The translations under genes and the position numbers were made by a program. Of a stretch of DNA of 64,000 nt, positions 9,313 through 61,287 are shown piece by piece; within the stretch, counting starts at the first letter, position 1, and every line of letters starts with the position of its first letter. The stretch is from NCBI GenBank assembly GCA_046153685.1, contig JBJXGH010000191.1, forward strand, positions 2,750 to 66,749. Direction: 5' to 3'. The DNA comes from Alphaproteobacteria bacterium (GTDB taxonomy: Bacteria; Pseudomonadota; Alphaproteobacteria; CADEGL01). The notes beneath the pieces were generated by a model, which was not told where the DNA came from, made no database searches, and saw nothing but the letters and a program-made list of their open reading frames with translations.

Positions 9313-10538
9313 GCCGAGTCGTCACCTTCGGATGCCGGCTGAATGCCTTCGAATCCGAAGTCATCAAGTCGCTGACCCGCGGCGAGGACGGCACGATCAT
9401 CGTCAATACCTGCGCGGTTACGGCCGAGGCCGAGCGCCAAGCGCGCCAGGCGATTCGCAAGCTCCGGCGCGAGAACCCCGATGCGCGCATCGTGGTAACC
9501 GGCTGCGCGGCTCAGATCGACCCCGCTTCCTACGCCGCCATGCCCGAGATCGATCGGGTGATCGGCAATGCCGAAAAGCTCGATGCCCGGAGCTATGCCG
9601 GCGCTGAACGCCTGGCGGTCGGCGACATCATGATTGCGCGCGACACGGCCGAACATCTGATAGCCGGATTCGGCACGCGCGCCCGCGCCATCGTCCAGGC
9701 GCAGAACGGCTGCGATCATCGCTGCACTTTCTGCATCATCCCGTTCGGGCGCGGCCCTAGCCGCAGCGTGGCCTTGGGAGCGCTGGCCCGCCAAGTGCGC
9801 GCGCTCGCCGAAGACGGCGTGCGCGAAGTCGTGATCTCGGGCGTCGACCTCACGTCCTGGGGCGAGGATCTTCCAGGCAAACCCGGCCTTGGACAAATGG
9901 TGCGCCGCCTTCTGGCCGCCGTGCCCGAGCTCGAACGCCTGCGCCTGTCGTCCTTCGACGTCGCCGAGGCGGGCGAGGATTTGCTGCGCGCGATCGCCGA
10001 GGAGCCGCGGCTCATGCCGCATTTCCATCTATCGCTCCAGTCGGGCGACGACATGATCCTCAAACGCATGAAGCGCCGACACGGCCGGGCCGATGCCGTC
10101 GGGTTTTGCGAACGCGCACGCGCGCTCCGCCCCGGCATCACCTTCGGCGCCGATTTCATCGCGGGATTCCCGACCGAGACCGAGGCCATGTTCGCGCGCA
10201 CGCTCGACCTCGTGGACGAATGCGGATTGACCTTCCTCCACGTCTTTCCCTATTCCGCGCGCCGCGGCACACCGGCCGCGCGCATGCCGCAAGTGCCCAA
10301 AGCCGCGCGCCAGGAACGCGCCTTGCGGCTGCGCGAAGCCGGCGGCCGCGCGCTCGACACCCATCTCGCGCGCCGAGTGGGCAGCGCCGCCAGCGTGCTG
10401 GTCGAAACCCCGCGCTTCGGCCGCGACCGCGATTACGCCCCCGTCCGTCTCGATCGTGACGCGGCGCCGGGCTCGGTGGTGGCCGCGCGGGTCATGGGCG
10501 CGGATGCGGGCGAGCTTCGCGCCGCGCTCGTGGGCTAG
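9309..10538 (+). CDS. mtaB: tRNA (t6A37) methylthiotransferase MtaB (radical SAM)
   Basis: MSRVVTFGCRLNAFESE N-terminus and radical-SAM CDHRCTFCIIP. ATG 9309 overlaps the dapF stop (ATGA). dapF-mtaB-ftsY synteny supports the call. Confidence 0.85.
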   Translation: MSRVVTFGCRLNAFESEVIKSLTRGEDGTIIVNTCAVTAEAERQARQAIRKLRRENPDARIVVTGCAAQIDPASYAAMPEIDRVIGNAEKLDARSYAGAERLAVGDIMIARDTAEHLIAGFGTRARAIVQAQNGCDHRCTFCIIPFGRGPSRSVALGALARQVRALAEDGVREVVISGVDLTSWGEDLPGKPGLGQMVRRLLAAVPELERLRLSSFDVAEAGEDLLRAIAEEPRLMPHFHLSLQSGDDMILKRMKRRHGRADAVGFCERARALRPGITFGADFIAGFPTETEAMFARTLDLVDECGLTFLHVFPYSARRGTPAARMPQVPKAARQERALRLREAGGRALDTHLARRVGSAASVLVETPRFGRDRDYAPVRLDRDAAPGSVVAARVMGADAGELRAALVG

Positions 10539-14785: not shown

Positions 14786-15487
14786 CTAACGGAACATGGA
14801 TTTAATCTGCTCGATCTTGTCGAATCCCTTGCGGGTTTCCGTGACCATGTCGCGGCCACAAACGTTTTCGAACCCGGATGATTTGATCGTCGCGCGCGTG
14901 ACCTTGATCTGCTCGTCGAAAACCTTGTCATATTGCTGACGGAAATAATCGACATCGCCCGTGCTGTAGCCGGCCTGATAGAGAAAATCGTAAAGGCTGC
15001 GCATATCGGAGGCGGCAAAGGACGAGCTGCCCGCGCAGCCGGCCGGAAGAGCGTTGATCGAACCCACATCGCGCAGCGCTTCCAGAATCCGCGACCGGTT
15101 GCGCCGAAGCTTGGCTTCGCTCTGCGCCGCCGCGGTTGCCTGCGCCTGGCCCGGCGTTTCCTTGGTCGCGTACGCGCCCATATTGAGTTCCGGCACCTTG
15201 GCCAGAACCTGCTTTGGCAGTTCGCAATTGAACCACTGCAGCATGTTCATGGCCATCAACTGACTGAGAATAAGATTGGTGACATAGGACTGCCGAAGCG
15301 TGGCGATCTGCACCTCGGCATCGGTGATGCCGACATTCTGTTCGATGAGTTGGGTGGATTGCCGGTAATGGGCGAGCGCCGTGTCGCACACCTGCTGGCC
15401 TTCGTTCCGGCCCGCGGGCGCGGCCAGGGCCTCGCCCGACGCGCACGCCAAGGCCAGGGACAACGCGGCAAGAACGATTTGACGCAT
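14786..15487 (-). CDS. hypothetical secreted protein, 4 Cys
   Basis: Start at Met33 gives a signal peptide MRQIVLAALSLALACASGEALA. No family recognised. Lies 13 nt upstream of the SMP-30 gene. Confidence 0.6.
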   Translation of the reverse strand: MRQIVLAALSLALACASGEALAAPAGRNEGQQVCDTALAHYRQSTQLIEQNVGITDAEVQIATLRQSYVTNLILSQLMAMNMLQWFNCELPKQVLAKVPELNMGAYATKETPGQAQATAAAQSEAKLRRNRSRILEALRDVGSINALPAGCAGSSSFAASDMRSLYDFLYQAGYSTGDVDYFRQQYDKVFDEQIKVTRATIKSSGFENVCGRDMVTETRKGFDKIEQIKSMFR

Positions 15488-15582
15488 GGCGTCACGCCTC
15501 TCTAATTCGTTTGCAAGTCGTCGGCACGTGGGCCGTTGGCGCGCGAGCCATCTCCGCCCGCGCGGCCATTTCTTATAACTCA

Positions 15583-15621
15583 CCCACCATACTAAGTATT
15601 AAGCCCACCAAATTAAGTGTT
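15583..15621. repeat. imperfect 18-bp direct repeat, period 21 bp (CCCACCAtacTAAGTaTT / CCCACCAaatTAAGTgTT)
   Basis: Read directly: 15583-15600 and 15604-15621, 15 of 18 positions identical. Lies about 100-135 nt upstream of the 15487 start on the minus strand, in an AT-richer gap. Confidence 0.7.
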
Positions 15622-17485: not shown

Positions 17486-18679
17486 TCAGCGTGGCGCCAG
17501 CGCGGCGACGCCGGGCAGGGTCTTGCCTTCGAGCCATTCGAGAAAGGCGCCACCCGCGGTCGAGACATAGCTGAAACGCTTGACCACGCCGGCATGGCCG
17601 AGCGCCGCCACCGTGTCGCCACCACCCGCGACCGTGAGTAGGCCGCCGCGATCGGTGAGTTCCGCGGCGCGGCGCGCAAGCGCGTTGGTGCCTGCATCGA
17701 ACGGCGGCGTCTCGAACGCGCCGACCGGACCGTTCCACACCAAGGTCCGGCAATTTTCGAGTTCCTTGCCGAGCGCCGCGATCGAAGCGGGACCGATATC
17801 GAGGATGAGTTGATTCGGCGGCACGGCACCAATCGGCACCGTGCGCGTCGCGACGCCTGCCGCAAGCGCGGGCGCGACAACCGCGTCCTCGGGCAGCAAC
17901 AGCGCACAGCCCGCGCGCTTGGCCGCGTCCTCGATCTGGCGCGCAGTCTCGGCAAGATCGCGTTCGCACAGAGATTTTCCGACCTCGACTCCGCGCGCGT
18001 GCAAAAAGGTGTTCGCCATCCCGCCGCCGATGATGAGACGGTCGACCTTGGCGGCGAGATTGGCGAGCAGATCGAGTTTGGTCGAAATCTTGGCGCCGCC
18101 CACGATGGCGGCGAGCGGGCGGACGGGCCGTGCCAGCGCCCGTCCGAGATGGTCGAGTTCCTCCTGCATCAGCCGTCCGGCCGCGTTGGGCAGCAAGCGC
18201 GCGAGCGTGTCCGTCGAGGCGTGCGCGCGGTGCGCCGCCGAGAATGCGTCGTTGACGTAGATCTCGCCCAGTCTGGCGAGCGCGGCGGCGAATTCGGGAT
18301 CGTTCTTTTCCTCGCCTGCATGAAAGCGCAGGTTTTCGAGCACCGCCACGCCACCCTCGGGCAAATCGCGAATCGCCGCTTCGGCGGCCGCACCCACGCA
18401 ATCCTCGACGAATACGATCTTGCATCCCAGCGCGCGCGCCAAGGCCGGGACCACCTGTTTCAGGGAATTTTCCGCGCCGCGGCTTTTGGGTCGGCCGAAA
18501 TGCGAGATGACGGCGACGCGCGCGCCCTTGCTTGCGAGTTCCGCGATGGTCGGCGCAAGGCGTACAAGGCGCGAATCGTCCGTTACCCGGCCGTCCGACA
18601 CCGGCACGTTTAGATCGGCGCGCAGGATGACGCGGCGACCTTTGACTTCTAGGTCATCGAGGGTACGAAACTGGGTCAT
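17486..18679 (-). CDS. pgk: phosphoglycerate kinase
   Basis: Start at Met78 of the track ORF (MTQFRTLDDLEVKGRRVILRADLNVP). Also HFGRPK, AIVGGAKISTK, NGPVGAFE and STAGGAFLEWLEGK. Confidence 0.95.
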   Translation of the reverse strand: MTQFRTLDDLEVKGRRVILRADLNVPVSDGRVTDDSRLVRLAPTIAELASKGARVAVISHFGRPKSRGAENSLKQVVPALARALGCKIVFVEDCVGAAAEAAIRDLPEGGVAVLENLRFHAGEEKNDPEFAAALARLGEIYVNDAFSAAHRAHASTDTLARLLPNAAGRLMQEELDHLGRALARPVRPLAAIVGGAKISTKLDLLANLAAKVDRLIIGGGMANTFLHARGVEVGKSLCERDLAETARQIEDAAKRAGCALLLPEDAVVAPALAAGVATRTVPIGAVPPNQLILDIGPASIAALGKELENCRTLVWNGPVGAFETPPFDAGTNALARRAAELTDRGGLLTVAGGGDTVAALGHAGVVKRFSYVSTAGGAFLEWLEGKTLPGVAALAPR

Positions 18680-38661: not shown

Positions 38662-39255
38662 ATGAATATGATTGGGCGGTGCCGTCGCGCGCCGCGCCGT
38701 CCGGCAGTGTTCGTTTGGGGGTCAGCCGTGTTTGCCCGTTTTGCAGCCGCCTGTGCGGCTCTTTGCCTCGTTGCGGTCTTCGGTCCCGTGCCCGCTCGCG
38801 CGGATGACGACCCGTCCTTCGTGACCTTCCAGGCAGGCGCCCTGGATCTCCTGCAGAACCACAATAAGGCCGGCGCCTTCGCGATGGAATATCGCGACAA
38901 TTCCACGTTTTGGATATTCAAGCCGTTTTTCGGCGCGATGGGCACCACCGACGGCGCGGCGCATGGCTATGGCGGCGTATTGGTCGACATCTATCTGTGG
39001 CGGCGCATTGTGTTCACGCTGAGCTTCGCGCCCGGCCTCTATCACGATGGCAAAGGCGTACAACTCGGCTTTCCATTGGAATTCCGCTCGGCGGGCGAGC
39101 TTGCCTATCGCTTCGATGACCGCTCGCGCCTGGGCTTCATGATCAATCACATTTCGAACGCGAGCCTGGGCAAGCGCAATCCCGGCACGGAAGTGATGAT
39201 GCTCAGCTATTCGGTGCCGTTCACCTCGATGCTGGGCGGGAAAGGCTCGAAATAG
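38662..39255 (+). CDS. acyloxyacyl hydrolase (PagL-like lipid A deacylase family)
   Basis: Signal-like N-terminus and an outer-membrane beta-barrel-like pattern, with HISNASLGKRNPGTEVMMLSYSVPF near the C-terminus. Confidence 0.6.
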   Translation: MNMIGRCRRAPRRPAVFVWGSAVFARFAAACAALCLVAVFGPVPARADDDPSFVTFQAGALDLLQNHNKAGAFAMEYRDNSTFWIFKPFFGAMGTTDGAAHGYGGVLVDIYLWRRIVFTLSFAPGLYHDGKGVQLGFPLEFRSAGELAYRFDDRSRLGFMINHISNASLGKRNPGTEVMMLSYSVPFTSMLGGKGSK

Positions 39256-40120
39256 GTCGGTTGACCAACCACACCCCGATCGTCGCCAGCAGAAATCCCG
39301 TGCCCGCCCCCCAGCCGATATCCTCGCCCAGCACCAACCAACCGAGAACCGCCGTCGTTCCCGGCGTGAGGTAAAAATTGGCCGAGACCTGGCCAGCTTT
39401 CCCGCGTTTGAGCATGTACAGCAACAGCGCCATGCCGCCGAGCGAGATGGCGAAGGTCAAATAGAGCAGCGTCGCGACAGTCTCCACGCTCCACTCGGCG
39501 TGAACATCCTCCAAGGCGAACGCCGCCGCGCCCGCGACGACCGCGGCGGCGCCCAATTGCACCGTGTTCGCGGGCACGAGCGCGCCCGCGCGGCAATGGC
39601 GCGCGTAATACAGCGTGCCCGCAACGAACGCGCCGACGCCCGCGATCGCCACGGCCATGGCCTCGAAGCGTTCCCAATCGTCCGCCCTCACCCCGACCAC
39701 GAGCGCCACGCCCGCGACGCCGAACGCCATGCCGCACCATTGGCGCGCACGAAAGCGCTCGCCAAGAAAATGCCCCGATAGCAGGGCGACCGCGATCGGA
39801 TGCAGCGAGCCGATGAGCGCGATGGTCGCGGCGCTGATGCGCGCCAGCGCGAGATAGGAGCAGGCAAGATAGATCCCGTTGATGAGCACGCCCGCGAGCA
39901 CGAAATGATGCCATCGCCCGGCAAGCGCGGACCAGTCCTGGCGCACGAGAAGCGCAAGCGCGCCCAAGACGGATACCGCCAAGACAAAGCGCAGGAACAG
40001 AAAATAGAGCGGCGAAATATCCGGCAGCCCCATGCGCACGGCGACGAAGGCCGAACTCCAGAGCAGCACGAACAGGGCGGGTATGGCACGCGCGAGCGCT
40101 GCCTCGCTCATCGCGCGCAC
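39221..40120 (-). CDS. EamA/DMT family transporter
   Basis: 299 aa, polytopic. ALFVLLWSSAFVAVRMGL N-terminus typical of EamA repeats. Lies 48 nt downstream of EctC-like copy A. Confidence 0.75.
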   Translation of the reverse strand: MRAMSEAALARAIPALFVLLWSSAFVAVRMGLPDISPLYFLFLRFVLAVSVLGALALLVRQDWSALAGRWHHFVLAGVLINGIYLACSYLALARISAATIALIGSLHPIAVALLSGHFLGERFRARQWCGMAFGVAGVALVVGVRADDWERFEAMAVAIAGVGAFVAGTLYYARHCRAGALVPANTVQLGAAAVVAGAAAFALEDVHAEWSVETVATLLYLTFAISLGGMALLLYMLKRGKAGQVSANFYLTPGTTAVLGWLVLGEDIGWGAGTGFLLATIGVWLVNRPISSLSRPASR

Positions 40121-40168: not shown

Positions 40169-40549
40169 CTAAAGAATGGGATAGGAGCCGTCCTTGTCGT
40201 GTATCTCGGAGCCGACAAGCGCCGGAGTGAAGACACAGATAATCCGCATCCGGGTCTTGGCGGCAAGCTTGTGCCGGTCATGCTGGTCCAGGCAGTACAT
40301 CGTGCCCGGCCGCGCGGCGTAGGTCTTGCCGGTGCTCAAATCCTCGAGCGTGCCTTCGCCTTCGAGAATGTAATTGCCTTCGATATGGTTCTTGTAGTGG
40401 AGAACGGCCTCGCCTCCCGCCTCGATCGTGGTGTCGGTCATGGTGAAGCCCACGCCGTCCGCGCGCGTGAGAAAGCGCAGGCTCGAGCCGGTCGCCACCT
40501 TGCGGTGATTCGGCCCGCCCTCCAAATCTTCCTTGTAGCGAACGATCAT
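40169..40549 (-). CDS. EctC-like cupin (ectoine-synthase family), copy A
   Basis: 126 aa: MIVRYKEDL...HYKNHIEGNYILEGEGTLED...YCLDQHDRH...GSEIHDKDGSYPIL. AAGGGAGA SD upstream. Confidence 0.8.
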   Translation of the reverse strand: MIVRYKEDLEGGPNHRKVATGSSLRFLTRADGVGFTMTDTTIEAGGEAVLHYKNHIEGNYILEGEGTLEDLSTGKTYAARPGTMYCLDQHDRHKLAAKTRMRIICVFTPALVGSEIHDKDGSYPIL

Positions 40550-40571: not shown

Positions 40572-40952
40572 TCACAGAATGGGATAGGACCCTGTTTCGT
40601 CGTGGGCTTCGGTGCCCACCAGAGCGGGCACGAAGACGACGATGATGCGGATGCGCGTTCTGCAGGTGACGCGATGCCGGTCGGCTTTGTCGAGGGTGAA
40701 CATCATGCCCGGACGAATCTCGTGGCTGCGGCCCGAATCGAGATCCTCGAGCGTGCCCGTGCCCTCGACGATGTAATTGGTTTCGATGTGGTTCTTGTAT
40801 TGCAATGTCGCGACGCGGCCCGGCTCCATGGTGAAATCGACCATGGAAAACCCGACGCCGTCGCCACGCACCAAAAGGCGGTAGCTTTCGCCCGCGGCGA
40901 GCGCGCGATGATGCGGCCCGCCCTTCAAATCCTCGCGATGCTTCACGATCAT
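40572..40952 (-). CDS. EctC-like cupin (ectoine-synthase family), copy B
   Basis: Start at Met44 of the track ORF, giving 126 aa: MIVKHREDL...QYKNHIETNYIVEGTGTLED...FTLDKADRH...GTEAHDETGSYPIL. 77 of 126 positions are identical to copy A (hand count, gap-free). Confidence 0.8.
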   Translation of the reverse strand: MIVKHREDLKGGPHHRALAAGESYRLLVRGDGVGFSMVDFTMEPGRVATLQYKNHIETNYIVEGTGTLEDLDSGRSHEIRPGMMFTLDKADRHRVTCRTRIRIIVVFVPALVGTEAHDETGSYPIL

Positions 40953-41044
40953 GGCATCGTCCACCCCGGCTTCCGACTCCATTTCGGAGCCGACGAACTT
41001 TAGGCACGGCGGCGCGCGAAAGCGAATCACGCGGTCTTGCTCGG

Positions 41045-41965
41045 TCACCCGGCAGCGGGCACCCTCTTGTGTCCGCTCCAAATCTGCATGGCGAAAATTG
41101 CCCCGACGATGAGCGCGCCGCCCACGGCCTGGAGCGGCGTCAGCACCTCACCCAGCAAAAAATAAGACAGGACGACGACGAACACCGGCTCGGCCGAAAG
41201 CGCCAGGGCTATGCGCGTCGGCCCCGCCATGGACAAGGCGCTGAACATGGAAAATAGCGCGGTGCCGTTGAGCGCGGCGATGGCAAACAAGCAGATCATG
41301 CCCCGATCGGTTGCCGGCAGGACGAAGCTGTCGGTCGCAAGAAAGGCGATCATGCCCACGAGCGCCCCGCAGGGCTGCATGTGCAGCATGATGCGCAAGC
41401 TGTCGATATTGCCGAGCGTTCGATTGGTGGCGACGATCAGGATGGAGAGGCCCACGGCGCTCAAGCCCGCAAGCGCAACCCCACGCGCGTCCAAGTCCAA
41501 CAGCGAGACCTGGAGCACGAGAGACAGCCCCGCGAACGCCGCCGCGATCGAAGCGAGCTTCACCGGCGTCAACGGCTCGCCCACCACGATACGCATCAAG
41601 AGCGCAACCAGAAGCGGATAGACATATTCGATGAGGACGGCGAGGCTAACGGGCACGAACAGGAACGACGCGTAAATCGAAAGCGTCTGGAAGCACATGA
41701 GGACGCCAAGCGCGCAAGCGATCGCGCGCTGGCGCGGCCTCAGCCGGATGGGCTTGGACGCAAGCAGCGCATAGGTCAGCAGAACCACGAACACGGCCGA
41801 CAGCCGCACGCCGATGATCGCCTGAGGCGAGCCGCCCGCGGCATAGACCTCGCGCGCCAAGATCACGCTCATGCCAAAGCACAGCGCGCTGCCGATGCCC
41901 ACGGCGAGGCCAAGCCAGGCGCGCCGGCCGATGGCCGTGGCGTCGTGCGATTGCGGACCGGTCAT
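41045..41965 (-). CDS. EamA/DMT family transporter
   Basis: Polytopic. ATG at Met10 (41965) is preferred over the TTG at 41992. Confidence 0.75.
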   Translation of the reverse strand: MTGPQSHDATAIGRRAWLGLAVGIGSALCFGMSVILAREVYAAGGSPQAIIGVRLSAVFVVLLTYALLASKPIRLRPRQRAIACALGVLMCFQTLSIYASFLFVPVSLAVLIEYVYPLLVALLMRIVVGEPLTPVKLASIAAAFAGLSLVLQVSLLDLDARGVALAGLSAVGLSILIVATNRTLGNIDSLRIMLHMQPCGALVGMIAFLATDSFVLPATDRGMICLFAIAALNGTALFSMFSALSMAGPTRIALALSAEPVFVVVLSYFLLGEVLTPLQAVGGALIVGAIFAMQIWSGHKRVPAAG

Positions 41966-42165
41966 TCTGCCCCCCTGACCGAGCTTATCCAAGGCGCGCC
42001 TGCGAACCTAGCGCGGCGGACACGGCGCGGCCTTTGGTTGATCGCCGCAGTTGCATAGTGTCCGCTGGCATGGCAGTGGCGCGCGAACGGGGTTCCGTTG
42101 GAGCCGGGCGAGGCCTAAAGTGTCCAACGGCCATGGAAGCTCGCAGCAATCAAGGGAGCGCCGCG

Positions 42166-45530: not shown

Positions 45531-47296
45531 CCGTCTATAAGGCGCCGCTGGCCGATCTCGCCTTCGTGCTGCACGACTTGCTCGGCGCCGAAGACGTGCT
45601 CGGCGCGCTGCCCGGCTGGCGGGACATCGATCGGCCGACGATCGAACGCATTCTCGGCGCGGCGGCGCGCCTCGCCGAGGATGAATTGTTTCCGCTCAAT
45701 CAATCAGGCGACCGCGAGGGCTGCGTTTTCGAGAACGGCGAAGTCCGCACGCCAACGGGCTTTCGGGCCGCGTTCGCGCGCTTCGCCGCCGGCGGCTGGT
45801 GTGGTTTGACCGCCGAGGAAAAATGGGGCGGTCAAGCCCTGCCCCGAATCATCGATACCGCCGTGCTCGAAATCTGGGGCTCGGCCAATCTGTCGTTCAG
45901 CGATTACGCCCTCGTCATTCCCGCGGCGGTCGAGACCATCGACCGCCACGCCGAGGAAAGCCTCAAGGAACGTTACCTTCCCGCCCTGGTCGCGGGAAAA
46001 TGGGCGGCCACGATGTGCATGAGCGAGCCCCATTGCGGCACCGATCTCGGCCTGCTCAAGACACGCGCCGAGCCGCAAGACGATGGCGGGTATCGCCTGA
46101 CGGGCACCAAATGCTTCATCTCGGGTGGCGAGCACGATCTGGCGTCGAATATCGTGCACCTGGTGCTCGCGCGCCTACCCGACGCGCCTGCGGGCGTGCG
46201 CGGCATCTCCTTGTTCCTGGCGCCGAAATACCTAGCTGACGCGAAGGGCGGCCCGGGCGCGCGCAACCGAGTGCGCGCCATCGGCATCGAGCACAAAATG
46301 GGCTATGCCGCCTCCGCCACCTGCACGATGGCCTTCGAAGGCGCGCAAGCCTGGCTGGTCGGCCCGCCTCATCGGGGATTGAACTGCCTGTTCACCATGG
46401 TGAATGCCGCGCGCCTCGCGGTCGGCATGCAGGGCTTGTCCTTGGCCGAGACCGCCTATCAGTCGGCCGCGCACTACGCGCGCGAACGCTTGCAAAGCCG
46501 CGCGCCGGCGGGTGCGCGCTTTCCCGACCGGCCCGCCGATCCTCTGATCGTGCAACCCGATGTGCGGCGCATGTTGCTGAATGCGCGCGCCTTCATCGAG
46601 GCGGCGCGGGCGCTGGCGCTGTGGACGGCGCTCCAGCTCGACATCGCGGCGCGCCACCAAGACGCGGCCACGCGCGAGCGCGCGTCCGACCTCGCCGCCT
46701 TTCTCACGCCCGCGATCAAGGCCGGGTTCAGCGATTGGGGCTTTGCCGCGTGCGACGACGCCATGCAGATTTGGGGCGGCCACGGCTATATTCGCGCGAA
46801 CGGCATGGAACAACTGGTGCGCGACGTACGCCTTTCGCGCATCCAGGAGGGAGCCAACGCGATTCAAGCGCTCGATCTGTTCGGCCGCAAGATGGCGCAG
46901 AACGGCGGCCGCGCCTTCCGGAGCCTGGTTGAGGAAATCGAGAAGTTTCTCGACGGCCCGGGCCGCGCGCCGGACATGGCGGAATTTTCCGTGCCGCTCG
47001 CCGCAGCGCTCGCGCGCACGGTCGAACTCGTCGCATGGCTCGGCAAGCAAGGCGACCGGAACGAACTCGCGGCCTCCGGCGTCGATGCCATGCGCGTGTT
47101 CGTCCTGATGCTGTTCGCCTGGACCTGGGCGCGCATCGCCCATGCCTGCCAGGGCCGCACCGATGCCATGGCCGAGGGCAAGCGCGCCGTCGCTCGCCAT
47201 TTCTTCGCGCGCCTTTTGCCCCTTCAGCCCGGCCACGCAGCCATCGCCATGGCAGGAGCCGCAAGTCTCATGGCGCTTGCCGACGACCAGGTCTAG
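45527..47296 (+). CDS. long-form acyl-CoA dehydrogenase (about 590 aa)
   Basis: ATG 45527 overlaps the upstream stop (ATGA). MCMSEPHCGTDLG, FISGGEHD and QIWGGHGYIRANGMEQLVRDVR. Confidence 0.85.
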   Translation: MTVYKAPLADLAFVLHDLLGAEDVLGALPGWRDIDRPTIERILGAAARLAEDELFPLNQSGDREGCVFENGEVRTPTGFRAAFARFAAGGWCGLTAEEKWGGQALPRIIDTAVLEIWGSANLSFSDYALVIPAAVETIDRHAEESLKERYLPALVAGKWAATMCMSEPHCGTDLGLLKTRAEPQDDGGYRLTGTKCFISGGEHDLASNIVHLVLARLPDAPAGVRGISLFLAPKYLADAKGGPGARNRVRAIGIEHKMGYAASATCTMAFEGAQAWLVGPPHRGLNCLFTMVNAARLAVGMQGLSLAETAYQSAAHYARERLQSRAPAGARFPDRPADPLIVQPDVRRMLLNARAFIEAARALALWTALQLDIAARHQDAATRERASDLAAFLTPAIKAGFSDWGFAACDDAMQIWGGHGYIRANGMEQLVRDVRLSRIQEGANAIQALDLFGRKMAQNGGRAFRSLVEEIEKFLDGPGRAPDMAEFSVPLAAALARTVELVAWLGKQGDRNELAASGVDAMRVFVLMLFAWTWARIAHACQGRTDAMAEGKRAVARHFFARLLPLQPGHAAIAMAGAASLMALADDQV

Positions 47297-53687: not shown

Positions 53688-54404
53688 TCAAGCACCCCGA
53701 CATTCGGGTAGCGCGAGAATCCGGGACACTCCGTCCAGAAGTTCCTTCTGGGCCAAGGGCGGCACGGCCTTGGCCTCGCGGCAGGCGCGCGGGAACTGGC
53801 CGAGATCAGCCGACGCCAAGGCCAACAATGCGCGGGCGTTCGCCGCCCCTTCTGGGTTGGAATTACCCGCGCGTGGCCGGGCCAAGCCCGCATCCAGAAT
53901 CGCCACGGCTTCGCGCGCGCGTTTGGCCAGAAGCAGCAGGCGCCCGTAATCCGCCCATGCGCCGATCGAGGTATTGGCCTTGGCGATTGCGATCTTGAAC
54001 ATCTGTTCGGCGAGCGCCTGATTGTCATCGCGGTCGTAAACCACCATGGCCATGCCGTGATAAGCGTCGCCATTTTCCGGTTCGAGCAAATAGGCCTGAT
54101 TGAAGCGCATGATCGCCGCGGTCAAATCGCCCTTAAAAAAATCTCGAAAGCCGAGATCCGCGACCTTATCCGAGGCCAAGGCGCGGCTGGCCTGCACCGT
54201 CGCGTCCACGATGTATTTGCGATCGCTTTCCTGCTCGGCGGGCGTGCGTGCAACGCCGCCATACATCGGCTGCTCGTTCGACGGGTAGGACGATGTCGGC
54301 TTCCTGCCCTGGGCCGAGGCCGCGCCCGCGAATGCCGCGCACAGGACGGCGACCAGAACGCAAGCGAAGGCGCCCAAACAGGGGCGCGCCACCGCTCCGC
54401 TCAC
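53688..54404 (-). CDS. secreted TPR-like repeat protein
   Basis: Signal peptide ...CAAFAGAASA, then TPR-like helices. The GTG start overlaps the kinase stop (GTGA). Confidence 0.55.
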   Translation of the reverse strand: MSGAVARPCLGAFACVLVAVLCAAFAGAASAQGRKPTSSYPSNEQPMYGGVARTPAEQESDRKYIVDATVQASRALASDKVADLGFRDFFKGDLTAAIMRFNQAYLLEPENGDAYHGMAMVVYDRDDNQALAEQMFKIAIAKANTSIGAWADYGRLLLLAKRAREAVAILDAGLARPRAGNSNPEGAANARALLALASADLGQFPRACREAKAVPPLAQKELLDGVSRILALPECRGA

Positions 54405-56098
54405 CGTGCGATCACCCTGTCCGACGGAAAGCGCATCGTCGCGACCGTGCCGCGCCCGGGTTCGCTGGCAAGTTCGAGCGTACCGCCGTGCAACGCCATG
54501 AGCTGGCGGCCGATCGTCAGGCCAAGGCCCGATCCGCCGCTTGGGCGCACATTGCTCATGTTGGCCTGCCAGAACAAATCGAAGGCGCGCGCAACTTCCG
54601 CGCGAGTCATGCCAATGCCGTTATCGGCCACCCGCACATAGGCGCCCTTGTCGTCCACGCCAAGCGTCAACGTGACCTCGCCGCCCGCAGGCGTGAACTT
54701 GACCGCATTCGACAGGAGATTGGCGAGCACCTGGCGCACCGCGCGCGGATCGGCGCGCACGCGCACATGGGTCGCGATCGAGTCTTCCTTGATTTGAACC
54801 CGGGCCTTTTGGGCCTGGGTCTCGGTCAGAATCACGCAACCGAGCGCGAGCGTGCCCAACTCGACATCTTCCTCGGCCAAGCGGTAATGCCCCGTGCGAA
54901 TTTTGGAGGCATCGAGCAGATCCTCGACGAGGTTCAGCAAATGGCGGCCGCTATCGAGCACCATGGCGGCGTGGCGCCGCGTGGGGCTGCCTTGTTGTGC
55001 GTCGTCGCGAATGACCTCGGTCAGGCCGAGCATGGCGTGCAGGGGCGTGCGCAATTCGTGGCTCAGCGTGGCGAGAAACGCCGACTTGGCCGCGGTTTCC
55101 GATTGCGCGGCGCGCTGTTCGGTGACCAGGGCGGAAATGAGCAGCAGATTTACGCTGAACAGCGTCAACATGCCGCCAAGCGCGGTCAGGGGGCGTTCAA
55201 ATCCGCCTGCGACGAACGGCCCCAAACCCGCAACCGAGCATACGGTCGCGACGACCATGACCAGGGTGAACAAGGTGTAGGCCGAGCGCAGCGATAGGCG
55301 CAGCGCAAGCCAGGTGAGCGGCAGGATGAGCAGATAGGGCGGATAGAAATTCGCCGTCCCTCCCGGCGTTTGGCCGAACAATAGCGCGGTTGCGCCTAGC
55401 GTGACCGCGGTTACGCCGAGGCCTTCCCAGCCGGGAAGCCGGTCCGCCGAGCGTGCATGCCGGAACGAGAGCCATAAAAGAAGCGCGGGTGAAAAATAGA
55501 GCGCGCCGCCTGCGTCGGAAATCCACCACCGAAGCCAGATCGACCAAAGCTCGGTCGAGGGAATTCCCGGAGCGCCGGCCCAGATGGCCAAGGTGCCGCC
55601 CGTTGCCACGACCGTGCCGTGAAGCACCACCCCGCCCGCCAGGAACGCGAAAAGGCCCTGAAAATTGTCGAACAACCGGCCCTCGGCGGCATGGCGCGCG
55701 ACGAGCAGAGCACCCAGCACGGGCCCCGCCGCATTGGTTAACGAGATGATCGTGACGACAAGCGCGTCCGCGCCAAAAATGATGGAGTTGGTGATCCACG
55801 ACGCGGCGAACAATGCCGGCACGACCCGCACCCCGCCGACCATGGCCGCGGCCAAGGCGATGCTGGCGGACAGCCAGATGGGCGAGGGAAAGAAGCCGAA
55901 AGCGGCGAAATACCAGCTGACCGCCACGCCAAAAACGACATAGAGCGTGCCAACCACGAAATTTACGGCAATCCACCCGAGCACGGGGCGTTGGGCAATG
56001 AGGGGCTCGAACCAATCCGGGCGGATCGCGCGATCGAGCAGGGCGCGCCCGGCCCACTCGAAACTCCAATGCGGCGCCCGTGTCTGTGTTGCGTTCAT
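54401..56098 (-). CDS. MASE1-domain sensor histidine kinase
   Basis: Membrane N-terminal half with a MASE1-like pattern, HisKA box FLATLSHELRTPL, and HATPase N/G boxes (NLLSNAVKFT, DNGIGM, GGSGLGL). Start is Met95 (56098) or Met86 (56125). Confidence 0.8.
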   Translation of the reverse strand: MNATQTRAPHWSFEWAGRALLDRAIRPDWFEPLIAQRPVLGWIAVNFVVGTLYVVFGVAVSWYFAAFGFFPSPIWLSASIALAAAMVGGVRVVPALFAASWITNSIIFGADALVVTIISLTNAAGPVLGALLVARHAAEGRLFDNFQGLFAFLAGGVVLHGTVVATGGTLAIWAGAPGIPSTELWSIWLRWWISDAGGALYFSPALLLWLSFRHARSADRLPGWEGLGVTAVTLGATALLFGQTPGGTANFYPPYLLILPLTWLALRLSLRSAYTLFTLVMVVATVCSVAGLGPFVAGGFERPLTALGGMLTLFSVNLLLISALVTEQRAAQSETAAKSAFLATLSHELRTPLHAMLGLTEVIRDDAQQGSPTRRHAAMVLDSGRHLLNLVEDLLDASKIRTGHYRLAEEDVELGTLALGCVILTETQAQKARVQIKEDSIATHVRVRADPRAVRQVLANLLSNAVKFTPAGGEVTLTLGVDDKGAYVRVADNGIGMTRAEVARAFDLFWQANMSNVRPSGGSGLGLTIGRQLMALHGGTLELASEPGRGTVATMRFPSDRVIAR

Positions 56099-56288
56099 GT
56101 TCGGATGATAGTGACGATGCGCCATACGGGCGGCAAGCTTGGATTTTAACCCAAAACCGCCATAGGCGCGAGAGTTCCGCCGCCATTCTCCACGCCAGGC
56201 GGGCGGTCGCCGGGCCGGGTTGAGCGATCGAAGGTTAGCCCTGTGCGGATGCCGGCGACCCTGTGCGAACGCTGGCCAATCGCCGGGA

Positions 56289-56453
56289 TCAGAGATATTT
56301 CGCGCGAATATCGACGGTCGATTCCCGGCCGAGGCGGGCGAAATTGGTCTTGAGCCAGACCTCGGCGCATTCACGCCCAATATCGCGCAAATGGGTCAGA
56401 AATTCCCAATCGCCGTTGAGCTTGCTCGCCACGGGTGGGAACGCGCGCGGCAC
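56289..56453 (-). CDS. hypothetical 54-codon ORF (possible small gene or gene remnant) after doxX
   Basis: Frame of track ORF 56289-56537. From the in-frame GTG at 56453, hand-read third codon positions are mostly G/C, and the composition looks non-artefactual (…KLNGDWEFLTHLRDIGRECAEVWLKTNFARLGRESTVDIRAKYL). No family recognised. Confidence 0.25.
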   Translation of the reverse strand: MPRAFPPVASKLNGDWEFLTHLRDIGRECAEVWLKTNFARLGRESTVDIRAKYL

Positions 56454-56475
56454 ATCGAGCCCGTCGCGCGGCGCG

Positions 56476-56961
56476 TCATCGGGCGCGAAAGAGGCGTCGC
56501 GCCAAAAGATGATCCAGCGAGAGCGCGCCCGCGCCACGCGTCAGCACATAGGCCAAAACCGAGGCCCAAAGCAGATGTTCGGCCCAATTCTCGGGATAGA
56601 CAAAGAACTGGATGACGAAGGTCATGCCGAGCAGAGCGGCCGCGCCAAAACGCGCGCCAAGGCCGAGAACGATCAGCACGGGACAGGCGAGCTCGTTCGC
56701 CGCCGCGAGCGTCGCCGCAAGCTCCACGGGCAGAAGCGGCACGGCGTATTCGTTCTCGAACAAGGCGAGCGTCGCGTCCCAGCTCGCGATCTTGGTCAAG
56801 CCCGATTTGAAGAACACCGCGCCCACGCCGACGCGCATTGCGAATTCGACGACGCCTAGCGGAAAGCGCGCGAGCAGGCGCCGCCCGGCATCGACGAGTT
56901 CGAGCGCGCGGCTGCCGGTGTTCGCAAGCGACACGGGCGTTTTCATGGCATTCGTGGACAT
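56476..56961 (-). CDS. DoxX family membrane protein (bufferin-operon DoxX)
   Basis: 161 aa with RVGVGAVFFKSGLTKI...CPVLIVLGLGARFGAAALLGMT. Lies 5 nt after the DUF2063 gene. Confidence 0.8.
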   Translation of the reverse strand: MSTNAMKTPVSLANTGSRALELVDAGRRLLARFPLGVVEFAMRVGVGAVFFKSGLTKIASWDATLALFENEYAVPLLPVELAATLAAANELACPVLIVLGLGARFGAAALLGMTFVIQFFVYPENWAEHLLWASVLAYVLTRGAGALSLDHLLARRLFRAR

Positions 56962-56966
56962 GGCCG

Positions 56967-57764
56967 TTACCCTTCATTTCCGGTGCGGGGAAGAATGAAT
57001 TCAATGATCGCCCCACAGCCGATGAGGAAGGCGAGCGTCCCGGCGAGATCGAAACCCGCGCCATTGGCGGCGGCGACCGCGCGCTCCAGTGGCCGCCCCG
57101 CGCGCAATGCGCAAAGGAAGGCGAATTCCGCGTCGCCAAGCGTCCGCCAAACCGGCGCGCCATCCTGGCGATGGATGAGAAGGCGGCACGCGCCCTCGTC
57201 GAGTGAAATCTCAGACTCCGCCGCATTCGGTTGGTTCGCAGCCCAGATGCGCGCAACGGGAAAGCGCGAGGTGAACAATCGGCACGCGGGATGGAATTGG
57301 AAAATCAAATCCGCCTGACGGGCGCATTCGACCCGGCCAAGGCACGCAGGATCGAGCGGCGGCATGTCGGGCGCGGTGCGCGAGAGGTTGAGCGCCCATT
57401 CAAGCCGCGCAACGTCGCCAAGATAGGGGTGAACTTGGGTCTCGGGGAGCGCTTCGAGCAGCGCGGGAAAGTCTTCGCCGTATTCGAACAGACATGGGCC
57501 CGCGGGCGGCGAGGCGGCGGCGAAACGGCGCGCGACCTGGGCGAAGAACATCTCGCCCACGAGGCGCCGCGTCGCGGGGAAGGTCGCGGCGAGTGCCTCG
57601 ATCACGGTGATGTAATAGTGATTGCGGTAAATCTGCACGCGCCGCGCGGGCGCCATGGAATCGCCCATCACTATGCCGGAAAGCTCGGAGTCCTCCAACG
57701 CGGCGTTGGCGAGCGGGCCTAGAACATGGGCGCGTAGCGTGCGTTGGATGTCATGCAGCTTCAT
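56967..57764 (-). CDS. bufC: DUF2063 (HvfC/BufC-type) partner protein
   Basis: MKLHDIQRTLRAHVL...RVQIYRNHYYITVIEALAATFP...YLGDVARLEWAL. ATG 57764 overlaps the DUF692 gene by 14 nt. Confidence 0.8.
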   Translation of the reverse strand: MKLHDIQRTLRAHVLGPLANAALEDSELSGIVMGDSMAPARRVQIYRNHYYITVIEALAATFPATRRLVGEMFFAQVARRFAAASPPAGPCLFEYGEDFPALLEALPETQVHPYLGDVARLEWALNLSRTAPDMPPLDPACLGRVECARQADLIFQFHPACRLFTSRFPVARIWAANQPNAAESEISLDEGACRLLIHRQDGAPVWRTLGDAEFAFLCALRAGRPLERAVAAANGAGFDLAGTLAFLIGCGAIIEFILPRTGNEG

Positions 57765-58737
57765 GGCCAAGACCCTCAGTTCGAGCCGCGCGCAGGGCGG
57801 GCGGGAAATGTGCGGGCGGGAGATTTGAAGGCACTCCCATATCCAGTACCGGCCGGCCGGATAACGGCCGGCCGGCGAATTGCGGCCGGGCCAACGCGTT
57901 TAGTGCACGCGCATCCGCTTGCGCCGCCTCGGCTAGCAACACCGAAAGCCGCGGTAAATTGCTGTCCCATTCCACGAGGGCGGGCGCGTGGGGAAACCGC
58001 CGAACCGCCGCCTCGTAAAGCGCCCAAACCTCCGCGGACACGGCCGAGCCGTGATCGTCGATGAGAATGGATGCGCCATCGGCATCGGCGACCGCGTGAC
58101 CCGCTAGGTGAATTTCGCCGACCGCCTCGGCCGGGAGCGCGGCCAGATAGCTGTGTGCATCGCCACCGAGATTGGTCAGCGAGACGTGGATATTGTTGAC
58201 GTCGCACAGGATCCCGCAACCCGTGCGGCGCGCGAGCGCGCTTAAAAATTCGGCCTCGGGAATCGTCGAGGCCGCAAAGCGCAGATAGGCGGACGGGTTT
58301 TCGACGAGGATGGGGCGGCGCAGCCAGTCCTGCGCGGCCGCGATATTGTCGGCGACGATGGCGAGCGCCTCCTCGGTGTAGGGCAGAGGCAGAAGATCGT
58401 TGAGATAGACGCCGCCCGCGACGCTCCACGACAGATGTTCGGAAACGAGAAAGGGTTCGGTGCGTTCGACAAGCTGCGCCAAACGCGCAAGATGCGCCGA
58501 ATCGAGGCCCTCGGCCGAGCCGAGCGACAGTCCGACGCCGTGGAGCGAGATGGGCCGCTCGCGGCGTAGGCGCGCCAAGACCCGCGCGGACGCGCCGCCG
58601 CCCATGTAATTCTCGGCATGAACTTCAAAAAATCCGACGGACGGAGGCGCGGCCAGAATTTCCGCCTCGTGCGGCGCGCGAAAGCCGATACCGGCCGGGG
58701 GTGGCGCGCCGTCTGGGGAAGGAACGAGGTCGGTCAT
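57751..58737 (-). CDS. bufB: DUF692 (MbnB/HvfB/BufB-type) multinuclear iron enzyme
   Basis: GIGFRAPH...FFEVHAENYMGGG...ISLHGVGLSLGS...SEHLSW...ILVENPSAYL...DVNNIHVS...EIHLAGH. Start is Met18 (58737) or Met15 (58746). Confidence 0.85.
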   Translation of the reverse strand: MTDLVPSPDGAPPPAGIGFRAPHEAEILAAPPSVGFFEVHAENYMGGGASARVLARLRRERPISLHGVGLSLGSAEGLDSAHLARLAQLVERTEPFLVSEHLSWSVAGGVYLNDLLPLPYTEEALAIVADNIAAAQDWLRRPILVENPSAYLRFAASTIPEAEFLSALARRTGCGILCDVNNIHVSLTNLGGDAHSYLAALPAEAVGEIHLAGHAVADADGASILIDDHGSAVSAEVWALYEAAVRRFPHAPALVEWDSNLPRLSVLLAEAAQADARALNALARPQFAGRPLSGRPVLDMGVPSNLPPAHFPPALRAARTEGLGHEAA

Positions 58738-58765
58738 GGCCCGCATCCGTCCGTCGGTTCGAAGT

Positions 58766-59032
58766 TCAAGTCTTGACTGCGCCACCATTGATCTTGGCGC
58801 AGGTGCCGGCGGGGACGAAAATCCACGCGTCGGCCTGATTGTCCTTCTTGGACGTACCCGCGCAAGACGAGGTCGCGGTCTGGCAGTCGTTCATGCCGGC
58901 TTTGGCGATACCGCCGCATTTCTCGAACTTGAAGCTCGGCTTTTCGGCGGGGCCGGCCTGGGCCGCGCCGAGAGCCACGAGTGAAAGCGCTGCCGCGAAG
59001 GCGGAGCCGACGAAAGCGGAAGAGGTCTTCAT
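58766..59032 (-). CDS. bufA: DUF2282 / BufA1-type bufferin precursor peptide
   Basis: 88 aa. Sec signal MKTSSAFVGSAFAAALSLVALGAAQA, then EKCGGIAKAGMNDCQTATSSCAGTSKKDNQADAWIFVPAGTCAKINGG with Cys39/50/57/78. AAGGGAG SD 7 nt upstream. Confidence 0.85.
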   Translation of the reverse strand: MKTSSAFVGSAFAAALSLVALGAAQAGPAEKPSFKFEKCGGIAKAGMNDCQTATSSCAGTSKKDNQADAWIFVPAGTCAKINGGAVKT

Positions 59033-59065
59033 GGCGAAACTCCCTTTAGTGGTTGAGCAGGCTAT

Positions 59066-59089
59066 CTTACGAACGCACTTACCTTACGA
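59066..59089 (-). promoter_or_regulatory. 7-bp direct repeat CTTACGA x2 (17-bp period) in the bufferin operon leader
   Basis: Read directly (59066-59072 and 59083-59089), 34-57 nt upstream of the bufA ATG. Function is unknown. Confidence 0.3.
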
Positions 59090-59217
59090 GCCGGCGAAGC
59101 GCGGGCCCGACCGCCACAATGGCATCGGCCCGGTGCGCGATCTGATCACGCCTTCGTGAGGCGCGGTCACATTCACGCGAGCGAGCGAGAAAACGGCCGA
59201 ACCGGGGCTGGACGTGA

Positions 59218-59712
59218 TTGCCGCCTATGTCACCGGCAATGTGGCGGACAACCCCGTTCGGCTGGCTGCTCTCGGCTGAGGTTGCCGATCAGTTGGGTAT
59301 GGACCTGGGTCTGGCGTGGAATTTTTATGTCTTCGCGAGGCTGCCTCGCGCGGCGCGGCGCTGGGGCACGCGCGCGAGTTTCTGGGGCGCGCTCGCGGTC
59401 GCGGGATTGGGTCTGCCGCTCGTCCTTCTGCCCCATCTCGGCGCATTGCTGGCCGGACTCGCGCTCATAGGCACGGGCACATTCTTCGCCCAAGCGGTTG
59501 CCACGGGGTTCGTCGGCCGCGTGGCCAGGGGCGACCGTGCCTCGGCGAGCGGCATCTATCTCGCGTGCTATTTTCTGGGCGGTCTTGCGGGTAGCGCGGC
59601 GCTGGGCGCGATTTTCATGCGCTCCGGCTGGCTAGGCTGCATCGCCGCGATCGGCGCATCCTTGGCCGTGGCGGCTTGGCTCGCCAGGCGCCTCGAAGAC
59701 TCGGCACCTTAG
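59218..59712 (+). pseudogene. 5'-truncated MFS transporter remnant (C-terminal about 5 TM only)
   Basis: The 164-aa ORF matches only the C-terminal part of a 12-TM MFS (…GTFFAQAVATGFVGRVARGDRASASGIYLACYFLGGLAGSAALGAIF…). Only about 185 bp separate it from bufA, leaving no room for the N-terminal half. Confidence 0.5.
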
Positions 59713-59722
59713 GCATTCGCGC

Positions 59723-60100
59723 CTACGCGGCGGCGACGTTGCCCGAAGCCGCTGCCATGTCGTGCCTATCATCCGACGGAAATGCGCCGAGATTTACACG
59801 CAGAATCACATGCTCGCCGCGGAGCGATATGGTCTTGCCGCAACTCCTCGGAACGGGGATGGATTTGACCTTGCACAGGAGCACGATCGCCGCAGCAATT
59901 TCGGAAGCCGAGATCGTGTGCGAACGGGGTGGGAGGCCGTTGACCCGAACCACGCAACTCACTCGCCGTTTCTCGTGCCGAGGTTGAACGTCGAGAATAT
60001 CGCCGGGGCCCAAGTTCGAGAATCGTCGTACATCCGGAATCGAAAAGGCCTCGACCAACTCGGCGCGCGAGAACGCGATGTAACGTATTTCCGACGGCAT
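59723..60100 (-). CDS. hypothetical protein (orphan, 125 aa)
   Basis: ATG start. Hand-read third codon positions are moderately G/C-biased. No family recognised. Sits in a patch that looks less GC-rich than its neighbours. Confidence 0.35.
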   Translation of the reverse strand: MPSEIRYIAFSRAELVEAFSIPDVRRFSNLGPGDILDVQPRHEKRRVSCVVRVNGLPPRSHTISASEIAAAIVLLCKVKSIPVPRSCGKTISLRGEHVILRVNLGAFPSDDRHDMAAASGNVAAA

Positions 60101-60230
60101 GGCGGTCCATCCGTAAGCGAGGCCGGAGCGTCTAGGGCGGCAGTATTACCGGGCGAAACTTAATAATTTCCTAGGTCCAAAACCCGCCCGGCGCGGATCA
60201 TTCGCCCACCAAGGTCGATCCTCTGGCCTG

Positions 60231-60252
60231 GCTGGGGCCTAGCTGGGGCCTA
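60231..60252. repeat. 11-bp tandem duplication GCTGGGGCCTA x2 spanning the TauD-like stop codon
   Basis: Read directly (60231-60241 and 60242-60252). Confidence 0.8.
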
Positions 60253-61287
60253 GCCGGCCGGCCGCGGAACCCAGCTCCGCTCCTCGCCCGCGTATTCGGG
60301 GCCGGGATTTCCCATCACCGTCGTGCGCCACATGATGCGGATGTACTTGTCCGCTTCGTACCAGCTCGGCGCGTGCAACAGATTGCGATTGTCGTAAATG
60401 ACGAGATCGCCCTTCGTCCAATCATGGACATAGACGAATTGATCCTGGGTCATGTGGCTCATCAGCTCGTACACGAGCTTCGCCCCCTCGCCGTCCGGCC
60501 CCGGCGACAGGCCGACGATGGGGCCGTCGACCCAATCCAGCTGTCCGCTCTCGCACATATAGATCGAAGGTCTTCCGGTCACCGGGTGGACGCGGACCAT
60601 GGATTGCTTCTGCGACCGCTGATGGGGGAGAAGCATTTTGGGCTGAACGCCGGAGCGCACGGCTTTTTCCGAGCGGCCATTGCTCGGCAGGGTATGCAGG
60701 GCTTCCATGCCTTGGATGCGCCGCTTCAGGTGCTCGGGCAGCGCCGCGTAGGCGGCGGTGCCGTCGGCGAACAAGGTCTGGCCCTGACCCTTGGGGGTCG
60801 GCTGTATCGCGATGAACAGCGAGAAATCGGGTGGCGGGCGGCGGAAACTCTGGTCCGAATGCCAGCCGCGCCGTTGAGGAAAGCGCGTGGGAAACTTGCC
60901 GTCCGGCGTCAGCGGCGGCTCGGGCCGCGTCATGGGCTGGTTGTTGATCGGCGGGGCATTGGTGACCAGGAGAATTTCGGGCACGTCCTCGTGGATGTTG
61001 AACAATGTCTTATTTTCGGCGGTGAAGGTCACGAGGTTGTTCTCGACCTCGGGCCCAAACAGCCTGGACAGACGCACCAGAAGACGCGGCTCGTCGAGAA
61101 TCTCGTCCATCCCGGGCAGGAACAAAAACCCGCCCGAGGCATAAAGCGCGTTCGCCAGCGCATCGGGTGTCTTCTCAAGCGCGTCCGTCGCCGCGCGCGC
61201 GCCCATGTCGGATTTGAAACGAACCACCCCGCCGAAATTCGCGCCCGGCAAGCGCGAAAGCTCGAACAACTGGGACGGAATTGTCAT
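60250..61287 (-). CDS. TauD/TfdA-family Fe(II)/2-oxoglutarate dioxygenase
   Basis: 345 aa with WHSDQSF (HxD), VHPVTGR and YDNRNLLHA. Confidence 0.8.
   Translation of the reverse strand: MTIPSQLFELSRLPGANFGGVVRFKSDMGARAATDALEKTPDALANALYASGGFLFLPGMDEILDEPRLLVRLSRLFGPEVENNLVTFTAENKTLFNIHEDVPEILLVTNAPPINNQPMTRPEPPLTPDGKFPTRFPQRRGWHSDQSFRRPPPDFSLFIAIQPTPKGQGQTLFADGTAAYAALPEHLKRRIQGMEALHTLPSNGRSEKAVRSGVQPKMLLPHQRSQKQSMVRVHPVTGRPSIYMCESGQLDWVDGPIVGLSPGPDGEGAKLVYELMSHMTQDQFVYVHDWTKGDLVIYDNRNLLHAPSWYEADKYIRIMWRTTVMGNPGPEYAGEERSWVPRPAG

Follow-up and report, generated by a model that had tools for sequence, protein, structure and literature searches.

A very probable Buf1-type bufferin operon, lacking the promoter motifs of its relatives, on the chromosome of an uncultured alphaproteobacterium

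Four tightly packed minus-strand open reading frames (ORFs) lie at 56476-59032 of a 64,000-nucleotide stretch of the genome of an Alphaproteobacteria bacterium (contig JBJXGH010000191.1 of assembly GCA_046153685.1; the whole stretch is called the window, and coordinates refer to it unless another locus is named). They raise the questions of whether they encode a bufferin, a periplasmic copper-binding peptide made from a modified precursor, of which type, and under what control. We conclude that the locus is very probably a functional Buf1-type bufferin (captophorin) biosynthetic operon, chromosomally encoded in an uncultured alphaproteobacterium; the window is chromosomal, with rplS, rimM, rpsP, ffh and dcd at its left end. 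As far as sequence can test it, the locus has each defining feature of the Buf1 cluster (BufA1-BufB-BufC-DoxX), and by the same measure it does not match the Buf2, Hvf/oxazolin, methanobactin, ApyH or ChrH systems.

In order of transcription the genes, all on the minus strand, are bufA1 (58766-59032), encoding the 88-residue bufferin precursor, bufB (57751-58737), encoding a 328-residue MNIO (DUF692) iron-dependent oxidase, bufC (56967-57764), encoding a 265-residue DUF2063 partner of the PME1 type, and bufD (56476-56961), encoding a 161-residue DoxX-family membrane protein. A Shine-Dalgarno sequence, AAAGGGAG, read directly from the DNA, is present on the same strand at 59040-59047, 7 nucleotides before the bufA1 ATG. 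The bufB ATG at 58737 (MTDLVPS...) follows the bufA1 stop after a gap of 28 nucleotides, the bufC ATG at 57764 creates a 14-nucleotide overlap with bufB, and bufD starts 5 nucleotides past bufC. The packing, coordinates, spacings and cysteine positions proposed in a first-pass annotation of this DNA are confirmed by the ORF list and by independent gene calls in L083, a 93%-identical relative, which agree on the starts and on the spacings of 28 and -14 nucleotides. An antisense ORF (58839-59159, plus strand) favoured over bufA1 by a crude gene caller based on GC content at third codon positions (GC3) was rejected because it matches no family, whereas bufA1 matches its own strongly. The A-B-C-D gene order is common to 54 of the 80 closest loci, and the closest BufB proteins among species representatives, at 65-69% identity, come from metagenome-assembled genomes of Alphaproteobacteria/Rhodospirillales.

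The check proposed with the first-pass annotation, a profile hidden Markov model comparison with the DUF2282, DUF692, DUF2063 and DoxX families, places all four proteins above the Pfam gathering cut-offs, by margins that chance cannot explain. For BufA1 the score is 81.2 bits against DUF2282 (PF10048, gathering cut-off 22.4), and 1040 homologues are found at E≤1e-3, in a family that the databases name 'BufA1' and for whose members NCBI uses 'BufA1 family periplasmic bufferin-type metallophore'. The precursor reads MKTSSAFVGSAFAAALSLVALGAAQA|GPAEKPSFKFEKCGG...NDC...SCAGTSK...WIFVPAGTCAKINGGAVKT, with the cleavage mark after LGAAQA and before GP. Its four cysteines (residues 39, 50, 57 and 78, CysI-IV) all occupy invariant columns in an alignment of 40 homologues, in which N48-D49-C50, S56-C57-A58-G59-T60 and W70 are also invariant. 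Residues 1-26 (58955-59032) have the features of a Sec-type signal peptide, namely K2, a hydrophobic stretch at residues 6-24 and the AQA|GP site, within an A-x-A/G-P-A junction conserved in the homologues; the predicted core is G27-T88, for which a monoisotopic mass of 6263.00 Da is calculated in the unmodified state. The precursor is of the BufA1 and not the BufA2 kind, scoring only 21.6 bits against the BufA2 model NF050166 (cut-off 60) and having four cysteines, not the six of Buf2 (BUF_6/12Cys). A sequence search of the PDB with BufA1 gave no matches. An AlphaFold2 model of BufA1 built on the 40-sequence alignment shows a helix at residues 6-20, and with an overall pLDDT (predicted local distance difference test) of 58 it was too poor for a fold search or for judging a CysI-CysIV contact and was not used further. 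Some relatives have a pair of tandem BufA1-type precursor genes before a single MNIO gene (L031 9286-9995 and L080 1842-2417), an arrangement already present in a published survey.

The enzyme is assigned with greater specificity. BufB scores 335.8 bits against Pfam MbnB_TglH_ChrH (gathering cut-off 25) and passes the NCBIfam equivalog 'MNIO family bufferin maturase' (MNIO_BufB) with 366.5 bits against a cut-off of 310, and it falls below the other equivalog cut-offs, i.e. HvfB (217 against 360), ApyH (84 against 400), MbnB (46.8 against 325) and ChrH (34 against 600). TglH has no model of its own in this comparison, and its structure 8hci_D, used instead, matches BufB with an E-value of only 2.9e-13, the best solved homologue being the DUF692 structure 3BWW (E 2e-36). 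Residues 15-276 form the catalytic domain, after which some 50 residues make up a C-terminal tail. BufB keeps every His, Asp, Glu and Asn conserved at 97% or more among 82 homologues (H40, H66, E100, H101, E146, D179, N182, H210, D227, H229, E256 and D258, including the E256-x-D258 pair); these are candidate metal ligands, and D258 would be the counterpart of the catalytic-base Asp of FonB.

BufC matches DUF2063 (PF09836) over residues 6-103 with 77.0 bits (cut-off 27.2). No solved relative was detected by a PDB sequence search, and its identity as the partner protein was therefore taken from fold comparison. The AlphaFold2 model (pLDDT 92.2), with a helical N-terminal domain and a C-terminal α/β (RRE-like) domain, has as its top Foldseek matches the MNIO partner TglI (8hci_A, E 1.7e-6, TM score 0.62) and NGO1945/3DEE, the PME1 prototype (E 4.9e-4, TM score 0.68 on the target). 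BufD scores 61.3 bits against Pfam DoxX (PF07681, cut-off 23.6). The first-pass view that this is a BufA1-class bufferin locus is thus upheld by the BufB equivalog, the BufA1 and not BufA2 character of the precursor, the invariant cysteines and the fold of BufC.

Comparison with known systems sharpens this assignment. The buf1 locus of Caulobacter vibrioides (CCNA_03363-03366) has the same four families in the same order, and its core cysteine positions are 12/23/31/52, compared with 13/24/31/52 in the window if cleavage occurs at AQA26; the residue after CysI is Gly in the window (EKCGG) and Tyr in most homologues. Caulobacter buf1 adjoins sigF-nrsF and has the promoter GTAACC-N16-CGAA, whereas the window has neither the two genes nor the motif. 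The gig operon of Cupriavidus metallidurans and SMb20527-20530 of Sinorhizobium meliloti, also in Pseudomonadota, are orthologous DUF2282-DUF692-DUF2063-DoxX operons that are metal-induced and/or under an adjacent sigma factor of extracytoplasmic function (ECF) group ECF16 (RpoE7) with a TGTAAC-N16-CGAA promoter, an element that the window does not have. The only difference of the window from Caulobacter buf1, gig and SMb20527-30 is the lack of ECF16 control, as in most relatives. More distant are oxazolin (Haemophilus influenzae hvfABC), fontiphorin and gonophorin, the 'Lys-Cys' captophorins, which share with the window the pair of an MNIO and a DUF2063/PME1 protein and, with what is proposed for it, a Sec-exported precursor, 5-thiooxazole modification and a copper-linked role; their precursors carry repeated EGKCG motifs, whereas that of the window is a DUF2282 protein with no EGKCG repeats. 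Methanobactin MbnB belongs to the same MNIO superfamily as BufB and its product is likewise a Cys-derived copper-binding peptide, but that system differs in its oxazolone-thioamide chemistry, its partner MbnC, its leader-dependent export and its role in copper acquisition.

What the operon would make can be proposed from Caulobacter Buf1, where BufB and BufC together are both required and sufficient for turning CysII and CysIII into 5-thiooxazoles (-4 Da each), a disulfide links CysI to CysIV, the peptide binds copper, and DoxX is dispensable for both modification and copper protection (PMC11626156). The formation of 5-thiooxazoles has since been extended to the whole MNIO-PME1 enzyme group, for whose products the class name captophorins is proposed (PMC13097082). 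The first-pass statement that enzyme and partner turn the precursor cysteines into thiooxazoles therefore stands as class chemistry but not for all four residues, as only the two central cysteines are converted in Buf1 and the outer two form the disulfide (PMC11626156). By homology to Caulobacter buf1 we infer that BufA1 would be translated with a Sec signal peptide, that in the cytoplasm a BufB-BufC complex would oxidise C50 and C57 by four electrons each to 5-thiooxazoles, and that the peptide would then be exported by Sec and cut after AQA26. A C39-C78 disulfide would form, and the 62-residue folded product would bind periplasmic copper and buffer excess metal, with DoxX as a conserved accessory protein on which the modification does not depend.

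Several points weigh against a functional operon of this kind. Production of the peptide, its modification and its copper binding in this organism are deduced by homology, not from its own sequence, and the poor precursor model (pLDDT 58) does not confirm the BufA1 fold. BufD reaches 45 bits against the NCBIfam HvfX model, whose cut-off is 80, and BufC is likewise under the HvfC equivalog cut-off; both results are expected because these models were built for the Hvf branch. Annotation of essentially all likely genes in the 64 kb revealed no cop or cus genes, metal sensors or sigma factors, i.e. neither copper-resistance genes nor sensors accompany the operon. The 148-nucleotide region upstream of bufA1 (59033-59180, minus strand), covered by promoter, motif and Rfam scans, contains no ECF16/SigF motif, no copy of a second motif found in relatives (motif 2, described below) and no sigma-70 consensus, and no promoter was recognised in it. 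Finally, this upstream DNA appears to be a deletion scar. The points that concern control of the operon are taken up in what follows.

The first-pass annotation had noted that no ECF sigma/anti-sigma pair, cop or cus genes lie nearby, and had set this apart from characterised loci. The absence is real: a phmmer search of all ORFs of at least 50 residues in the window with E. coli RpoE (an approximate sequence) as query found no ECF sigma factor at E≤1e-3. As a departure from the norm it does not hold, as an ECF sigma gene lies within 2.5 kb in only 11 of the 80 closest loci, leaving 69 without an adjacent one, and the published core cluster is A-B-C-DoxX, with sigma/NrsF genes in a subset only (PMC12452194). 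The ECF16/SigF promoter consensus is also published (PMC3511200, PMC6180224); a search for GTAACC-N15-17-CGAA with up to 2 mismatches in the 250 nucleotides upstream of bufA1 found no site, and a 3-mismatch candidate (GTGATC-N16-CGAT) was dropped since about 2-3 such matches are expected by chance in that length. Around the operon a sigma-70 promoter scan gave 0 sites and a terminator scan four terminator-like sites, which is the chance number and of which none is convincing, and an Rfam scan of 55800-60300 returned only a sub-threshold chance match. Among the relatives the 250 nucleotides upstream of bufA1 were compared in 71 of the 80 closest loci. The ECF16/SigF promoter (GTAAC-N16-18-CGAA) is present in 16 of the 71, at about -70 to -110, one of these (L024) probably being a false positive, and several relatives that have this promoter have no sigma gene nearby.

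The same comparison revealed a second, more frequent element. Motif 2, 37 nucleotides long and approximately CTATCGAAAYCATAG-N9-GCATTTCA, lies at -75 to -140 of bufA1 in 22 of the 71 relatives, including the nearest BufB relatives L002, L005, L058, L013 and L023 and all Mesorhizobium/Ensifer loci. Its sites include L002 7634-7670, L005 9498-9534, L058 9505-9541, L013 2402-2438 and 2226-2262 (minus strand), L014 9553, L015 7350 and 9552, and L024 9583, and others exist. It is always oriented with the downstream gene and also precedes SDR, cupin-MFS, patatin-like and DoxX-NDH2 genes in the same loci; in rhizobia it adjoins a LysR-family gene. The first part resembles a LysR-type T-N11-A box and is followed by the conserved GCATTTCA, and motif 2 looks like the mark of a local regulon distinct from the SigF/ECF16 one. 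An EcfG/RpoE5-type promoter was also considered for motif 2: the rpoE5 promoter of S. meliloti shares the terminal GGCATTTCC, but its spacing differs by about 3 nucleotides. A weight matrix that scores 30-44 bits on its own sites finds nothing of 12 bits or more anywhere in the window, and the 93% relatives of the window likewise carry neither the ECF16/SigF motif nor motif 2. Both are also absent from 33 of the 71 relatives. Motif 2 could guide work on how most bufferin operons respond and on the signals that they respond to. A few kb downstream of buf, three of these loci encode fusions of about 710 residues (L005 14987-17113, L002 12851-15025 and L058 13857-16007, all minus strand) in which an N-terminal DoxX domain is joined to a type-II NADH dehydrogenase-like flavoprotein (Pyr_redox_2 + NDH2_C); a weaker copy of motif 2 stands before the fusion gene in L005 and L002, and none was found in L058.

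What distinguishes the window is the DNA into which the bufA1 upstream region runs, a decayed, 5'-truncated MFS transporter gene (59181-59712, plus strand) that is divergent from bufA1 and marks the operon boundary, with both promoter motifs of the relatives absent; this is the new observation here. The remnants were mapped by blastp and tblastn against full-length MFS homologues beside the buf operons of L013, L014, L018 and L042. Residues ~138-161 correspond to 59181-59252 (frame 3), residues 163-187 to 59260-59343 and residues 284-400 to 59347-59697 (both frame 1), and the gene is missing its first ~137 codons and residues ~188-283. A 164-residue ORF survives at 59218-59712, and the remnant scores 28.4 bits against Pfam MFS_1, below the cut-off. 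An MFS match at 59021-59092, overlapping the bufA1 start, was rejected because a stop codon interrupts it and it breaks the colinearity of the other remnants. L013 has a full-length orthologue, 63% identical in the last 117 residues, as part of a cupin-MFS operon divergent from bufA1, with motif 2 before both the bufA1 and the cupin-MFS transcription units; a search for a cupin-gene remnant between bufA1 and the MFS remnant of the window found none. Read together, these sequences suggest that the ancestral bufA1 promoter region was probably lost in a deletion that also took the cupin gene and the 5' part of the MFS gene, and this deletion is thus the probable cause of the missing promoter motifs. 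L001 and L082-L086 carry the MFS gene in the same truncated form, and the deletion would therefore be older than their divergence from the window. With respect to the 93% relative, the remnant has a ratio of non-synonymous to synonymous substitution rates (dN/dS) of 0.23 (28 synonymous and 19 non-synonymous differences), unlike a dead pseudogene; it may still give rise to a short membrane protein, or the value may simply reflect too small a sample.

If the upstream region was lost in this way, buf transcription would start at an unrecognised promoter in 59033-59217 or reach the operon as read-through from two same-strand genes further upstream, a TauD-family gene (60250-61287) and orf125 (59723-60100). 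A fuller account, which we put forward tentatively as one possibility, is that a deletion of ~1 kb or more in the lineage of the window and its 93% relatives took both the promoter region and the divergent, co-regulated cupin-MFS operon, bar the 3' part of the MFS gene, and that the buf genes, still selected, now stand under a new non-canonical promoter, read-through or other control, for example by a MASE1 kinase encoded downstream. If true, a bufferin operon would here have undergone regulatory rewiring in nature. orf125, on the minus strand between the TauD-family gene and the MFS remnant, is a conserved ORF of 125 residues that matches no Pfam family, is present in all close relatives and has a dN/dS of 0.38.

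The MASE1-HisKA-HATPase sensor kinase gene (54401-56125, minus strand) lies ~350-375 nucleotides downstream of bufD on the same strand, is syntenic in a close relative and overlaps the gene of a TPR protein (53688-54404, minus strand) by 4 nucleotides, with no response regulator nearby; in L082 it appears split, and only a 319-residue HisKA-HATPase product is called. The kinase was considered as a sensor for the operon, a role left unsupported by the comparison, as only eight other loci have kinase-like ORFs within 10 kb of buf, in varied arrangements, and the kinase of the window has no response regulator beside it.

Control bears on function, and the peptide could be a true bufferin-type product with a role other than copper buffering, directed at another metal or at oxidative, chlorine or electrophile stress. 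Chromium and cadmium induce the Caulobacter operon through SigF (PMC3511200), none of the inducers tested acted on the S. meliloti orthologue (PMC6180224), and a SigF/NrsF-type system of another organism is reported to be hypochlorite-responsive (PMC4436054). The genes that share the bufA1 motif in relatives (SDR, cupin-MFS, patatin and DoxX-NDH2) look like a redox-type and not a metal-type set, and the window has no cop or cus genes. However, copper binding and copper protection are the sole direct functional data for Buf1 and related peptides (PMC11626156; PMC13097082), and the precursor retains the exact cysteine pattern used for copper binding. We therefore regard a non-copper role as unlikely, if worth keeping in mind, and copper buffering as the preferred function.

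Another reading is that the genes are no longer expressed and survive as a silent relic, their promoter having gone in the same deletion that cut short the MFS gene. The upstream region, with neither motif of the relatives nor a sigma-70 consensus, and the visibly decayed MFS gene beside it would fit such a history. The coding sequences do not: none of the four ORFs is disrupted, either in the window or in any copy of the 93% relative, the ribosome-binding site and translational coupling are preserved, and dN/dS against L083 is 0.14 for bufA, 0.24 for bufB, 0.28 for bufC and 0.29 for bufD, with 105 non-synonymous and 140 synonymous differences over bufA-D. These values are in a range similar to that of neighbouring housekeeping genes (0.02-0.38 for neighbouring genes). 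The buf genes are under purifying selection, and are therefore probably still expressed; with 33 of the 71 relatives also carrying neither motif, moreover, the absence is common. A silent relic is accordingly very improbable. Least credible of all is that the enzyme installs methanobactin-like oxazolone-thioamide pairs in place of 5-thiooxazoles, products that are isomeric with them and hard to distinguish and that were first proposed for the related HvfB product (PMC11252979), since nuclear magnetic resonance on Buf1 favours 5-thiooxazoles (PMC11626156), the oxazolin structure has been revised to 5-thiooxazole (PMC13097082), later preprints back 5-thiooxazole in bufferins (10.64898/2025.12.15.693703), and BufB falls far below the cut-off of the MbnB model, as given above.

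A functional Buf1-type operon thus remains the preferred reading, and it is of a kind already well described. The suggestion that this is a little-studied system has to be given up: work from 2024-2026 has characterised, named and biochemically reconstituted the class, Pfam and NCBIfam have names for it, and the family is reported at more than 24,000 MNIO-PME1 loci and in about half of Pseudomonadota reference genomes (PMC13097082). The window adds one more intact Buf1 operon to a family of tens of thousands of loci and raises no new question of chemistry or function. Its interest is in control, since it shows such operons persisting under selection in the absence of the SigF/NrsF regulation that operates in the model organism.

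Elsewhere in the window, four ORFs called on GC3 have no Pfam match (8589-10028 and 46232-47236, minus strand; 14786-15583, minus strand; 17810-18613, plus strand), and some of these may be spurious. Between two EamA-family transporter genes (39221-40120 and 41045-41992, minus strand) lie two ectoine-synthase-like (EctC) cupin genes in tandem (40169-40549 and 40572-41081, minus strand), with no ectA or ectB recognised adjacent.

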